Shown here piece after piece: positions 11,065 through 16,911 of a stretch of 46,124 bases of DNA. Source of the stretch: a virus (lineage: Duplodnaviria; Heunggongvirae; Uroviricota; Caudoviricetes); IMG/VR virus record IMGVR_UViG_2547132255_000002, one strand, 5' to 3'. Below the pieces are notes generated by a model, which saw only the letters and a list, made by a program, of their open reading frames with translations, was not told the DNA's origin and made no database searches. The translations under genes and the position numbers were made by a program. Numbering within the stretch: position 1 is the first letter of the stretch; each line of letters opens with the position of its first letter.

Positions 11065-12011
11065 ATGAGCAATACAGCAAAAATCTACGATTTCAGCGCC
11101 GCACACGAGCGCAGGAGCAACAGGATGGAGAACCAGAAAACTGGTTACATTCCGTTGTACCGGAGCATTCTGAAACAGTCATGGGCGAAAGATGTTTATC
11201 TTCGCACCCTGTGGGAAAACCTTCTCCTGAATGCCGCCAGAAAGCCATACAAAGCGAATTTCAAAGGTCATGAATGGCATCTGCAACCCGGTCAACTGGT
11301 TGTGACAGCAGCTGATTTAGGTCTTCAGTTATGCGACAGGCATGGCAAGCCGGCAAGCCGTGATCAGGTTGAGCGGATGCTTCAGGTTTTTGTGAAAGAG
11401 GGGATGATCTCCATTGATGGAGAGAAGCAAAAAGGTCGTGTGATCACCATCACAAATTACCATGAATATGCTCAAAAAATGGACGATTCACCCGCACATG
11501 AAGCCGCACAAACAACCGCACATGATGCCGCACATGATGAAGCCAGTAATGGCGCGGCATTCAGCGTACATGCCGCACATGAAAGCGCACATGAAGCCGC
11601 ACAAACAACCGCACATCATGAACAAGAAGGTATTAACAAGAATATAAATAATACCCCCTACCCCCCAATGGGGGAGGCGATGGGCAGGTTAAACCTGAAC
11701 GTCGCAAGGCAGAACGCATCGACTACGAATCCTTCCTGAACGCCTACAACACCGAAGTCGGTGACAGACTTCCACACGCTGTTGCGGTCAACGAGAAACG
11801 CAAACGCCGCCTGAAGAAAATCATCCCGCAACTGAAAACGCCAAACGTGGACGGTTTCAGAGCGTATGTCAGGGCGTTTGTGCATCAGGCCAAGCCGTTT
11901 TACTTCGGAGACAACGACACGGGCTGGACGGCAGATTTTGATTACCTGCTGAGGGAAGATTCGTTAACGGGAGTTCGGGAAGGGAAGTTTGCAGACAGGG
12001 GGATTGCATGA
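11065..12011 (+). pseudogene. Replication initiator (lambda O / P22 gp18-like), frame interrupted by an apparent 1-nt deletion near 11654-11674
   Basis: Frame-1 ORF 11065-11739 carries the N-terminal domain and the iterons; a start-less frame-3 ORF 11652-12011 carries a C-terminal domain ending in ATGA overlap with the helicase start. Confidence 0.6.
11491..11620. repeat. Origin iterons (about six copies of CCGCACATGA) inside the initiator gene, followed by an AT-rich tract
   Basis: Direct repeats at about 11492, 11516, 11528, 11571, 11586, 11609; AT-rich 11621-11653; lambda-ori-like architecture. Confidence 0.75.
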
Positions 12012-13384: not shown

Positions 13385-13457
13385 CCATCTACATCACTGA
13401 GCTAATAACAGGCCTGCTGGTAATCGCAGGCCTTTTTATTTGGGGGAGAGGGAAGTC

Positions 13458-13898
13458 ATGAAAAAACTAACCTTTGAAATTCGATCTCCAGCACATCAGC
13501 AAAACGCTATTCACGCAGTACAGCAAATCCTTCCAGACCCAACCAAACCAATCGTAGTAACCATTCAGGAACGCAACCGCAGCTTAGACCAAAACAGGAA
13601 GCTATGGGCCTGCTTAGGTGACGTCTCTCGTCAGGTTGAATGGCATGGTCGCTGGCTGGATGCAGAAAGCTGGAAGTGTGTGTTTACCGCAGCATTAAAG
13701 CAGCAGGATGTTGTTCCTAACCTTGCCGGGAATGGCTTTGTGGTAATAGGCCAGTCAACCAGCAGGATGCGTGTAGGCGAATTTGCGGAGCTATTAGAGC
13801 TTATACAGGCATTCGGTACAGAGCGTGGCGTTAAGTGGTCAGACGAAGCGAGACTGGCTCTGGAGTGGAAAGCAAGATGGGGAGACAGGGCGGCATGA
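13458..13898 (+). CDS. ninB: Recombination protein NinB
   Basis: [56 protein letters not shown]... matches lambda NinB. Confidence 0.9.
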
Positions 13899-14071
13899 GG
13901 CGACAGCGACGAAGTATCACCGACATCATCTGCGAAAACTGCAAATACCTTCCAACGAAACGCTCCAGAAATAAACGCAAGCCAATCCCAAAAGAATCTG
14001 ACGTAAAAACCTTCAACTACACGGCTCACCTGTGGGATATCCGGTGGCTAAGACATCGTGCGAGGAAATGA
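13896..14071 (+). CDS. Small nin-region protein (NinD-like?)
   Basis: 58-aa [30 protein letters not shown]...; start overlaps ninB stop and stop overlaps methylase start. Confidence 0.5.
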
Positions 14072-15018
14072 CGATGACTGCGTATTACAACGAAATAGAT
14101 CCGTATGCAGCGCAATGGCTGCGTAACTTAATTGACGCTGGAGAAATTGCCCCCGGTTATGTAGATGAAAGGAGTATTGAAGATGTCACTCCAGGTGATT
14201 TGCGAGGATTTACCCAGCACCACTTTTTTGCAGGAATCGGAGTTTGGAGCTATGCACTTAGAAAAGCAGGATGGCCAGACAACAAGAGTATCTGGACAGG
14301 AAGTTGCCCATGCCAACCTTTCAGCTCGGCAGGCAAAGGAAAAGGGGTTGATGACGAGCGGCACTTATGGCCGGCATTCTTCTGGCTTATTGAAAAATGC
14401 AATCCTGGCATCGTTATTGGCGAACAGGTTGCAAGCGCAGACGGCCTCGCTTGGCTCGACCTTGTACAAACTGACTTGGAAGGTGCGAACTACACCTCTG
14501 CAGGTACCGATATTTGCGCTGCGGGCTTCGGTTCTCCGCACATTAGGCAGCGATTGTATTGGGTGGCCTACTCCAACGACAAATATCAACTTTCAGCCAG
14601 AGACGCGCAGGGGAATTCAGAACCTATCTGGATGCGTGAGACTAGCGGGATGGCAAACTCCTTTAGCGAACGATGCAACAGGTTCAACGCATTGCTACAG
14701 CGGAAAAGACAAGAGCGGAACCCCAAGAATCTGCTTGAAACTTCCCGGGACGGTGAAGCTATGTACCCATTACCGGTTAACGGCTTCTGGAGAGATGCAG
14801 ACTGGCTTTACTGTAGAGATGAAAAATATCGTCCAGTTAGACCCGGCTCATTCCCGATGGTTAATGGCATTGCCAAAAGCTTGGGACGAGGCAAGTCCAC
14901 ACTGGGAAGAATGGCAAAGCGCAATCAAGATCAGCGAATTATTGGATATGGAAACGCAATCAATGCAGAAGTAGCAACGGCATTCGTGAAAGTTTGTATG
15001 GAGGTTGTTAATGCTTAG
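14068..15018 (+). CDS. DNA (cytosine-5)-methyltransferase, orphan
   Basis: Motif [10 protein letters not shown], catalytic PCQ in [16 protein letters not shown], motif VI-like [13 protein letters not shown]; no adjacent restriction endonuclease. Confidence 0.85.
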
Positions 15019-15187
15019 CCCATCCCAATCCATTCAATACCAGAAAGAAAGCGTCGAGCGGGCTTTAACGTGCGCTAACTGCGGTCAGAAGCTGCATGTG
15101 CTGGAAGTTCACGTGTGTGAGCACTGCTGCGCAGAACTGATGAGCGATCCGAATAGCTCAATGTACGAGGAAGAAGACGATGAGTGA
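15005..15187 (+). CDS. Small Cys-rich nin-region protein (NinE-like?)
   Basis: 60 aa with CxxC...CxxCC (CANCGQKLHVLEVHVCEHCC), acidic tail. Confidence 0.5.
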   Translation: MLMLSPSQSIQYQKESVERALTCANCGQKLHVLEVHVCEHCCAELMSDPNSSMYEEEDDE

Positions 15188-15449
15188 TTTCTCTGAGCTT
15201 ATTTCCTTCAAAAAAGACAGAGAAGAAATGCAGACTGAATCTGTCTATTACGTTCAACACCGGAATAAACGCTCGGTGCTTGATCAGGAGCTGGTTATTA
15301 CCGGAGACCTGGCATTCAGAACATATAAGGCCAGAATGGAAATGAAGGATTTCCCTAAATGTGGTTCTGAAAGAGAAGCCGCGTTAAAGCTGGCAGAGTG
15401 GATGCAGAGAATGGCTGCTGCAATTGAGAATTACTGGAGCGAACCATAA
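15180..15449 (+). CDS. Hypothetical nin-region protein
   Basis: 89-aa ORF, start overlaps preceding stop; stop overlaps ninG start. Confidence 0.5.
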
Positions 15450-16060
15450 TGGCTAAACCAGCGCGAAGACGATGTAAAAACGATGAATGTCGGGAATGGT
15501 TTCACCCTGCATTCGCTAATCAGTGGTGGTGCTCTCCAGAGTGTGGAACAAAGATAGCACTCGAACGACGAAGCAAACAGCGCAAAAAAGCGGAAAAAGC
15601 AGCAGAGAAGAAACGACGACGAGAGGAGCAGAAACAGAAAGATAAACTGAAGATTCGAAAACTCGCCTTAAAGCCCCGCAGTTACTGGATTAAACAAGCC
15701 CAACAAGCCGTAAACGCCTTCATCAGAGAAAGAGACCGCGACTTACCATGTATCTCGTGCGGAACGCTCACGTCTGCTCAGTGGGATGCCGGACATTACC
15801 GGACAACTGCTGCGGCACCTCAACTCCGATTTGATGAACGCAATATTCACAAGCAATGCGTGGTGTGCAACCAGCACAAAAGCGGAAATCTCGTTCCGTA
15901 TCGCGTCGAACTGATTAGCCGCATCGGGCAGGAAGCAGTAGACGAAATCGAATCAAACCATAACCGCCATCGCTGGACTGTCGAAGAGTGCAAGGCGATC
16001 AAGGAAGAGTACCAACAGAAACTTAAAAAACTGCGAAATAGCAGAAGTGAGGCTGCATGA
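15449..16060 (+). CDS. ninG: NinG (Rap-like recombination protein)
   Basis: 203 aa, N-terminal Cys cluster ([24 protein letters not shown]) and basic linker as in lambda NinG. Confidence 0.85.
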
Positions 16061-16911
16061 CGTTCTCAGTAAAAACCATTCCAGACATGCTCGTTGAAGC
16101 ATATGGAAACCAGACAGAAGTAGCACGCAGACTGAAATGTAGTCGCGTTACGGTCAGAAAATACGTTGATGATAAAGACGGGAAAATGCACGCCATCGTC
16201 AACGACGTTCTCATGGTTCATCGCGGATGGAGTGAAAGAGATGGCTATTACGAAAAAATTGATGGCAGCAAATACCGAAATATTTGGGTAGTTGGCGATC
16301 TGCACGGATGCTACACGAACCTGATGAAAAAACTGGAGACGATAGGATTCGACACCAAAAAAGACCTGCTTATCTCGGTTGGCGATTTGGTTGATCGTGG
16401 TGCAGAGAACGTTGAATGCCTGGAATTAATCACATTCCCCTGGTTCAGAGCTGTACGTGGAAACCATGAGCACATGATGATTGATGGCTTATCAGAGCGT
16501 GGAAACGTCAATCACTGGCTGCTTAATGGCGGTGGCTGGTTCTTTAATCTCGATTACGACAAAGAAATTCTGGCTAAAGCTCTTGCCCATAAAGCAGATG
16601 AACTTCCGTTAATCATCGAGCTGGTGAGCAAAGATAAAAAATATGTCATTTGCCACGCCGATTATCCTTGTAACGAATACGAGTTTGGAAAGCCAGTTGA
16701 TCATCAGCAGGTAATCTGGAACCGCGAACGACTCAGCAACTCACAAGACGGGATCGTGAAAGAAATCAAAGGCGCGGACACGTTCATCTTTGGTCATACG
16801 CCAGCAGTGAAACCACTCAAATTTGCCAACCAGATGTATATCGATACCGGCGCAGTGTTCTGCGGAAACCTCACATTGATTCAGGTACAGGGAGAAGGCG
16901 CGTGGGCATAA
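16057..16911 (+). CDS. ninI: NinH-NinI in-frame fusion ORF (NinI = Ser/Thr protein phosphatase)
   Basis: First ~63 aa match lambda NinH; the remainder ([23 protein letters not shown]...GNHE...) matches the lambda phosphatase; the separate ninI start frame terminates after 17 codons. Confidence 0.8.

Follow-up and report, generated by a model that had tools for sequence, protein, structure and literature searches.

M.EcoHK31I (YGGCCR) of Escherichia coli HK31 is said to have been described by Lee, Kam and Shaw in 1995 as a natural heterodimeric C5 cytosine methyltransferase. Its alpha chain has about 309 and its beta chain about 176 amino acids (aa), and M.EaeI has been reported to be built in the same way. 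The alpha and beta chains of M.EcoHK31I must associate for activity, and beta is encoded entirely within alpha in another reading frame; alpha has motifs I-VIII and X together with what is predicted to be the target-recognition domain (TRD); beta has motif IX (PMC2836561, PMC3404938). N-terminal truncations of beta weaken the association, and removal of the beta start codon is insufficient to abolish activity; Met17 and Met26 could initiate translation (PMC2836561, PMC3404938). M.AquI is likewise a C5 methyltransferase made of alpha and beta subunits (PMC3404938). Here, these systems are compared with a C5 cytosine methyltransferase gene at positions 14068-15018 of a 46,124-nucleotide stretch of DNA, hereafter the window, from a virus of the Caudoviricetes (IMG/VR record IMGVR_UViG_2547132255_000002), in which a second open reading frame (ORF) is nested within the methylase gene.

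Comparison with described methyltransferases

The locus consists of two overlapping coding sequences (CDSs) on the same strand:

14068..15018, + strand: frame A, the 'alpha-like' CDS of 316 aa, for the catalytic large domain of a C5 cytosine methyltransferase
14183..14974, + strand: frame B, the 'beta-like' CDS of 263 aa, lying in the +1 frame inside frame A over its whole length; open from ATG 14165 (269 aa)

We consider the locus to be, with moderate probability, an orphan two-polypeptide C5 cytosine methyltransferase built like M.EcoHK31I. The gene layout is of a known kind with published precedent. The nested +1-frame gene was absent from the preliminary description of this locus, which had been made from the same DNA.

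The likeness to M.EcoHK31I is drawn from the published layout of that enzyme. In both cases the second chain is nested in the gene of the first in another frame, no motif IX is recognised in the large chain, and the small chain ends in motif IX (here, a putative IX-like segment). The small chains also appear to share an N-terminus that is tolerant and alternative internal starts (here, candidate starts), and the large chains are of similar size (316 aa here, about 309 aa in M.EcoHK31I). However, M.EcoHK31I belongs to a restriction-modification pair, whereas the methylase in the window is an orphan in the nin region of a prophage. The TRD of M.EcoHK31I has been assigned to alpha; in the window gene, by contrast, constraint between motifs VIII and X falls mainly on the beta frame. 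Compared with the M.EcoHK31I beta chain, frame B is also longer (207-263 aa against about 176 aa) and contains repeated W-x-T-P modules, and frame A differs from alpha in having motif II- and III-like segments ahead of the motif I-like one.

Other methyltransferases are comparable in part. M.AquI is also split into two polypeptides that must associate, but it is divided end to end in the variable region, with motifs I-VIII in alpha and IX-X in beta, and is not nested. Single-chain enzymes, including E. coli Dcm, M.HhaI, M.HaeIII and the methylases of phages RB16, Kopi and phiARI0923, share motifs IV, VI, VIII and X and the large-domain fold with the window gene. Unlike in the window gene, their TRD and motif IX (RxLTPRECxRLQGFP) lie in the same frame as these motifs. 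The N6-adenine methylases annotated between ninB and ninE/ninF in phages ECP1, HK544, Sf101 and N7 occupy the same niche and presumably have the same protective role, but they belong to another fold family.

Frame A encodes the catalytic chain

Frame A matches Pfam PF00145 with 52.6 bits (cut-off 22, E 6e-14), and this match stops at profile position 196 of 324. It is covered over its full length by phrog_363 'DNA methyltransferase' (E 9e-92) and has more than 8000 homologues, with 'DNA cytosine methyltransferase' as their source name. Against the NCBIfam dcm model (TIGR00675) it scores 42.2 bits, below the cut-off of 100.65. Its start is probably ATG 14074 and not ATG 14068, because GAGG lies 8 nucleotides (nt) upstream of the former and the homologue consensus begins 'M-x-AYYNEID'. 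The following parts can be recognised in it:

14083-14100, + strand: motif II-like, YYNEID
14164-14187, + strand: motif III-like, DERSIEDV
14224..14250, + strand: motif I-like, FFAGIGVWS
14302..14334, + strand: motif IV, SCPCQPFS, with the catalytic Cys as residue 82; aligned to canonical GFPCQPFS and invariant in 65 homologues
14416..14430, + strand: motif VI, IGEQV, the ENV equivalent and aligned to canonical ENV; G118, E119, Q120 and V121 invariant
14533..14562, + strand: motif VIII, IRQR, aligned to canonical PQxRxR; R160 and R162 invariant
14578..14757, + strand: frame A linker, unconstrained and length-variable in A, with purifying selection on frame B only
14779..14868, + strand: conserved frame A element of 30 aa before motif X, overlapping the C-terminal part of frame B
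14941..14976, + strand: motif X, GYGNAI, at the start of the C-terminal helix; Y294, G295, N296, A297 and I298 invariant; aligned to GNSV; predicted local distance difference test score (pLDDT) 87

These assignments were supported by hhalign, with E. coli Dcm and seven methylases from phages as a reference set of eight canonical single-chain enzymes, which aligned frame A from motif II through VIII with a probability of 98% (E 8.5e-14). The order of the N-terminal motifs is unusual, as YYNEID and DERSIEDV precede FFAGIG, which itself lies just upstream of PCQ. Because the motif I-like segment follows the II/III-like segments, local and global hhalign disagree on the N-terminus: the local alignment sets YYNEID on motif II, and the global alignment sets FFAGIG on motif I. 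AlphaFold2 (AF2) predicted this region with permuted motif order (14083-14334) at pLDDT 83-95.

For frame A as a whole (65 homologues), AF2 gave pLDDT 80-95 for residues 1-172, below 50 for residues 173-295 and 87 for the helix at 296-316. A Foldseek search with the confident parts returned the catalytic domains of M.HhaI, M.HaeIII, DNMT2 and DNMT1 (E about 3e-9, about 200 columns). No motif IX was found in frame A by hhalign against the eight canonical enzymes, its C-terminal half matching motif X alone, and no folded TRD was found in the AF2 model, where residues 173-295 fall below pLDDT 50. In the 30-aa element at 14779-14868, F240-D251 are invariant or nearly so and the wobble at 14788-14832 is of the frame A type; AF2 confidence is low there.

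Frame A is the catalytic polypeptide of a C5 methyltransferase and has the large-domain fold; going by its motifs and predicted structure, it would also carry out methyl transfer. This much had been proposed in the preliminary description, and it stands: the ORF at 14068-15018 on the plus strand is borne out by PF00145, phrog_363, the motifs and the AF2/Foldseek fold, and the context of the catalytic Cys, on which the description had staked its reading, is retained on alignment, with motif IV invariant in 65 homologues and on canonical GFPCQPFS. The label 'Dcm-type' fits in part. It holds for the C5 catalytic chain but not for an ordinary single-chain enzyme, given motifs II/III before I, a dcm score of 42 bits against 100.65, and a chain without motif IX or a folded TRD.

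Both frames are under selection

The viral sample was drawn from IMG/VR, with 79 loci recovered by means of frame B and a further 80 that are more distant; together they hold 156 distinct genes. Frame A was always in the -1 frame relative to frame B in these loci. Across the 156 genes, frame A is open for 257-554 codons and frame B for about 200-560, and the third frame for 2-125. As a bacterial control, 80 loci from species-representative genomes were retrieved by frame A motifs only, and the 73 with a recognisable PCQ were analysed. In all 73, the +1 frame has an open run of 212 codons or more (median 301), against a median of 70 for the +2 frame. These loci range from 51% to 71% GC and include Acidobacteria, Verrucomicrobia, Planctomycetes, Chloroflexi, Nitrospira and candidate phyla radiation (CPR) genomes. 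Both frames are open in all 229 intact genes examined (156 viral and 73 bacterial), and the two-frame pattern holds across 48% to 71% GC. When the synonymous codons of frame A were shuffled, a +1 run as long as the observed one arose in 0-1 of 2000 shuffles for eight of the 11 diverse genes analysed; the remaining three reached it in 6-32 of 2000.

Conservation is distributed differently along the two frames. Frame A is conserved at 14068-14570 and 14770-14990. At 14578-14757 its conservation is weak, with 0.16-0.39 identity to the window; over the same nucleotides, frame B identity is 0.38-0.58. Frame B is conserved at 14428-14487 (0.90), 14518-14577, 14638-14697 and 14788-14907 (0.89), and its conservation peaks where that of frame A is lowest. 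The codon phase of variation changes along the gene as well. The most variable nucleotide is the third codon position of frame A (A3) at 14068-14340 and from 14923 on, and the first position of frame A (A1), which is the third of frame B (B3), at 14563-14740 and 14833-14922. At 14338-14560 and 14788-14832 the phase is mixed, with conserved motifs of both proteins on the same nucleotides.

Openness, shuffling, conservation and codon phase are independent tests, and all say that the second frame is more than chance or a by-product. Both ORFs are under purifying selection across very distant lineages.

A recent, de novo overprinting of frame B was also considered and ruled out, since every sampled occurrence of frame A comes with frame B, whether in enteric phages or in Planctomycetes, Chloroflexi, Acidobacteria and CPR genomes.

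Probable start of frame B

Candidate signals for internal initiation, by which frame B is probably translated, are present within the frame A coding sequence:

14169..14174, + strand: AAGGAG, the Shine-Dalgarno sequence of frame B, with an 8-nt spacer before ATG 14183; formed by frame A codons GAA-AGG-AGT (Glu-Arg-Ser)
14351..14353, + strand: alternative frame B ATG, giving a 207-aa form; preceded by AAGGAAAAGGGG

An ATG 42 codons upstream of PCQ, corresponding to 14183, is present in 127 of the 156 viral genes and is made of frame A Asp-Val codons. In counts from phylogenetically related sequences, which are hence not independent events, the Asp codon making this ATG is GAT in 117 genes and GAC in four, against a background of 43:57; the Arg codon in the Shine-Dalgarno sequence is AGG or CGG in 103 of 128 (background 34%), and the Ser codon is AGT or AGC in 106 of 128 (background 48%). 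Together, the Arg-Ser codons spell GGAG. Adjacent Asp and Val codons vary freely and serve as an internal control for this bias. In the bacterial set, the bias at the start Asp is weaker (GAT:GAC 37:16). Synonymous codons of frame A thus preserve both a Shine-Dalgarno sequence and an ATG for frame B.

The downstream start is also common, as an ATG at +11 or +14 codons from PCQ occurs in about 104 of the 156 genes. For example, phage N15, Vequintavirus pangalan and two other loci (L106 and L146) must start near an ATG of the 14351 type because a frame B stop lies upstream. About 40 N-terminal residues of the long form of frame B are unconstrained, because the wobble pattern there is that of frame A only.

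Frame B and its parts

The translation of frame B matched 242 phage records by tblastn, the best being Salmonella phage 66FD (E 1e-75, 50% identity over 97% of the query). In every record inspected (66FD, N15 gene 58, K1ind2, Rhodobacter phage RcJoli, Vequintavirus pangalan, KPN U2874, HC6, Csp-D17 and C72C1), the match lies in the +1 frame of the annotated cytosine methylase. Frame B matches phrog_1008 and phrog_31772. Its family shares a common plan, in which a Ser-rich lead-in is followed by a helix-hairpin ('SRLQ...GSxLYxLTWK...TPxG...ASxxRT'), W-x-T-P-x-A-x-D modules and a C-terminal 'LNPxxSRWLMG(Y/L)PxxW' segment. In the window, these parts are located as follows:

14387..14542, + strand: N-terminal module of frame B, a helix then a beta-hairpin, including ALRASVLRT; overlaps frame A motifs VI-VIII
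14561..14692, + strand: two W-x-T-P-x-A-x-D modules, GWPTPTTN at 14561-14584 and the second at 14645-14692
14834..14890, + strand: motif IX-like segment, the best-conserved part of frame B (0.89); positions W232, L233, L236, P237 and W240 invariant

Within the helix-hairpin module, the stretch 14428-14487 has an identity of 0.90, above that of frame A on the same nucleotides. By analogy with the N-terminus of M.EcoHK31I beta (PMC2836561), we propose that the helix-hairpin is the part that binds alpha. The W-x-T-P-x-A-x-D modules, which number from 0 to 5 among frame B relatives, are proposed as the DNA-recognition part; their likeness to the canonical 'APTLTxxxG' was seen by eye and was not significant by hhalign.

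The C-terminal segment resembles canonical motif IX, for instance that of Dcm (RRLTPRECARLMGF) or RB16 (RRLTPRECFRLQGFPDSF). Here, hhalign sets the end of frame B on the canonical RrLTprEcxRLxGFPd in the right register, but weakly (P 0.018, probability below 20%). A mosaic of the frame B end and frame A motif X aligns with canonical motifs IX-X at natural spacing with a score of 28.8 (P 0.0013), and this local score compares with 20.2 and 20.1 for the single parts. In global alignment, the full mosaic reaches 101.6 versus 89.5 for frame A alone. The assignment of motif IX to frame B is, on these alignments, plausible but not proven. Other comparisons of frame B were negative. Scanned against Pfam at E<=10, 68 homologues of frame B gave nothing but noise, NCBIfam had no match to frame B, and full-length frame B gave no hhalign signal against the canonical methylases, only the comparison restricted to the C-terminus weakly matching motif IX.

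Proposed mechanism

If the locus is a two-chain enzyme of the M.EcoHK31I kind, frame A (14068/14074-15018) would yield an alpha-like chain with the S-adenosylmethionine (AdoMet)-binding, catalytic large domain, in which the stretch between motifs VIII and X is a largely unconstrained linker. Ribosomes starting at the internal Shine-Dalgarno sequence and ATG (14183 or, alternatively, 14351) would read the same mRNA in the +1 frame and produce a beta-like chain. The helix-hairpin of beta would dock on alpha, and its W-x-T-P modules and motif IX-like segment would complete the small, DNA-facing domain. Cys82 (PCQ), Glu119 and Arg160/162 of alpha would carry out methyl transfer from AdoMet. The two chains would assemble into an active enzyme, with cytosine on replicating phage DNA as its target after induction, and methylation would protect progeny phage DNA from restriction in the next host. 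A and B co-occur in all 229 intact genes, across many phyla, which is the pattern that an obligatory partner would show.

In phage lambda, the nin genes are transcribed from pR only after induction, and by analogy the same may apply to this prophage. A lysogen-specific methylation mark is not expected if the nin genes are silent in the stable lysogen. This makes it doubtful that the enzyme alters host epigenetics in the lysogen, a role that the preliminary description had raised, since lambda nin genes are expressed only after induction. For the same reason, the lysogen-versus-cured comparison suggested there could be negative even with an active enzyme.

Alternative explanations

Several observations weigh against a two-chain enzyme. 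Outside the enteric clade, the ATG at -42 occurs in only 35 of 66 genes, so the frame B start site is not universal. The motif IX call comes from a short segment with hhalign probabilities below 20%, chimeras of A(I-VIII), B(modules and IX) and A(X) did not extend the Pfam PF00145 match, and HMMER searches with the frame B sequence and profile found no match among PDB sequences and Pfam. AF2 modelled frame B alone (67 homologues) mostly with low confidence (mean pLDDT 45), residues 75-122, the helix and beta-hairpin, being the sole stretch with pLDDT 70-76. Furthermore, the pLDDT below 50 at frame A 173-295 could stem from a shallow alignment and not from disorder, and the conserved 30-aa frame A element might act as a minimal recognition element. 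Some of these points favour the main alternative, in which frame A alone is a self-sufficient orphan C5 methyltransferase and frame B is a real overlapping gene with a separate function, its product being perhaps a regulator, an anti-defence protein or a DNA-binding protein. The catalytic motifs are present in frame A and its Pfam score exceeds the cut-off, the element at 14779-14868 between motifs VIII and X could serve as a small recognition element, and frame B is without a significant hidden Markov model (HMM) or structural link to methyltransferases. However, frame B accompanies frame A in 229 of 229 intact genes from many phyla, motif IX is not detectable in frame A, an IX-like end of frame B lies at the canonical distance from frame A motif X, and the sole characterised enzyme with such a gene layout needs both chains (PMC2836561). 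We regard a self-sufficient frame A as unlikely, though it deserves to be taken seriously.

Programmed +1 frameshifting would instead fuse the N-terminus of A to B, perhaps with a shift back that gives a single mosaic chain, and would involve no independent initiation. Reading from A to B and back to A would restore the canonical order I-VIII, IX, X, and at about 14920, shortly ahead of motif X, the phase of selection turns from that of B to that of A. A single path cannot explain, however, why selection acts on both frames at 14338-14560 and 14788-14832; frame A is open through the linker in all genes, and synonymous codon choice keeps a Shine-Dalgarno sequence and ATG for frame B. No slippery heptamer was noticed on reading 14880-14945, in the absence of a systematic scan, and M.EcoHK31I beta arises by internal initiation (PMC2836561). 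Frameshifting is therefore a good deal less probable than a self-sufficient frame A. Finally, frame B could be untranslated, its openness and conservation a by-product of constraint on frame A or of base composition, as GC-rich DNA often has long alternative ORFs and the N-terminal 40 residues of frame B carry the frame A wobble pattern only. This explanation is effectively refuted: B is most conserved where A is least and the wobble phase there is B3, the +2 frame control is short, the shuffle test opposes chance, and the pattern spans 48%-71% GC.

Genomic context

The methylase lies in the early-right region of a lambdoid prophage, with the gene order Phage_rep_O, DnaB, NinB, NinE, methylase, NinF, an 89-aa ORF, NinG, a NinH-phosphatase ORF, Q, holin, lysozyme and Rz. 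Its immediate flanks are:

13440-13898: NinB
13835-14071: NinE
about 15011-15187: NinF

The preliminary description had placed the gene in a nin region, and this is borne out, the region being that of a lambdoid prophage with NinB, NinE and NinF as flanks. However, that description had it replacing ninC, whereas the order is ninB-ninE-methylase-ninF, with the methylase between ninE and ninF. It had also proposed translational coupling to the flanking nin ORFs, of which the end overlaps are seen: the ninE stop overlaps frame A ATG 14068 (ATGA), and ninF, which begins with the ATG at 15011, shares 8 nt with the end of the methylase. The orphan status claimed for the enzyme is upheld, as no gene for a restriction-system nuclease was found within about 4 kb upstream and about 4 kb downstream. 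A type II restriction-modification pair was ruled out, with no adjacent endonuclease and with NinB, NinE, NinF, NinG, NinH-phosphatase, Q, O and DnaB as neighbours.

At 99% identity or above, the methylase occurs in 11 of 5426 complete E. coli genomes, in all cases on the chromosome and between NinE and NinF. Among the sequenced phages of the INPHARED set, none has it at 85% identity or above.

Other features of the region were also recorded. The 89-aa ORF between ninF and ninG (15180-15449, + strand) is without a match in Pfam and overlaps both neighbours, the stop of ninF at its own start and the start of ninG at its own end. In the single ORF at 16057-16911 (+ strand, 284 aa), residues 1-60 are a NinH domain (Pfam E 3e-42) and residues 75-249 a calcineurin-like phosphoesterase. 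Phage lambda has ninH and ninI as two genes, and the 284-aa ORF may be a fusion or a read-through. Within the Phage_rep_O gene (11065-11739), the O-like protein is repetitive at 11450-11650 (AHEAAQTTAHDAAHDEA...AHESAHEAAQTTAH) and alternative frames repeat HMKPHKQPHMM. Judged by eye, these look like direct DNA repeats inside the gene and are possibly origin iterons.

Distribution and annotation

A frame B profile search found 15,240 clusters at 50% identity with E<=1e-3, including 6979 with E<=1e-30. In 166 viral loci, 80 genome loci, the weak tblastn tail and the longest frame B-family proteins, no single-frame relative was found with a frame B-like sequence fused in frame to PF00145. The two-frame architecture reaches beyond the family of the window gene, because the methylase of Phage C72C1 (L176, OQ984150.1) also has a nested ORF. 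The C5 methylase of this phage, at 855-1682, is short, keeps the motifs in canonical order and has a low-complexity linker ahead of RVDRLKGLGNAIVPQ, and the nested +1 ORF carries YLTWRPKATPAGR, LWPTPQAADYK, MWPTPTAHNSKEGG and LNPTWVEWLMGYPEGWTD.

Two further phage loci were noted separately. In the T4-like Krischvirus LF73P4 (L175, OZ035795.1, about 900-1900), the A-like and B-like frames both shift by one base at the same mid-gene point, which would be either a sequencing indel or a pseudogene. Streptococcus phage P0094 (L172, KY705254.1) has a canonical single-chain C5 methylase at 401-1264 with motif IX in the main frame, and a nested +1 CDS at 552-971 named 'DNA methyltransferase', which may be a gene-calling artefact or another overlap.

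Annotation of frame B is sporadic, under the names 'hypothetical protein', 'Mte8-like protein' or 'DNA methyltransferase'. K1ind2 is the only inspected phage record that annotates both CDSs, the nested one as 'Mte8-like protein'. The nested protein of the window itself appears in GenBank as a 263-aa 'hypothetical protein' in older E. coli annotations (e.g. EQP02271.1) and once in the 207-aa form, and RefSeq/PGAP records name frame A only and omit frame B. A search of the available literature on Mte8, C-specific methylases and overlapping or embedded phage methylase genes found no account of the nested gene.

Significance

It is possible, at slightly less than an even chance in our estimate, that the nested beta-like gene is an ancient and obligatory feature of one of the largest phage and prophage C5 methyltransferase families, in which the recognition part (the W-x-T-P modules and motif IX) has moved to the beta frame and left a spacer in alpha. 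If so, thousands of 'DNA cytosine methyltransferase' entries would represent half an enzyme, and Pfam, NCBIfam and PGAP would offer no model of the remaining half. Should frame B be required, it would be lost from codon-optimised or truncated clones of frame A, and the methylase would falsely appear 'inactive', which matters for the characterisation of phage methylases, the prediction of their specificity and their use in evading restriction.

The A-B pair is also a clean, deep-rooted case of same-strand dual coding in bacteria and phages over about 790 nt, of which about 270 nt (14338-14560 and 14788-14832) are constrained in both frames, and methods for detecting overlapping genes could be benchmarked on it. 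The gene in the window is itself an ordinary accessory gene carried by a lambdoid prophage; the precedent for its architecture was published in 1995. What is worth recording is the depth and universality of the dual coding, which is missing from present annotation and family libraries.

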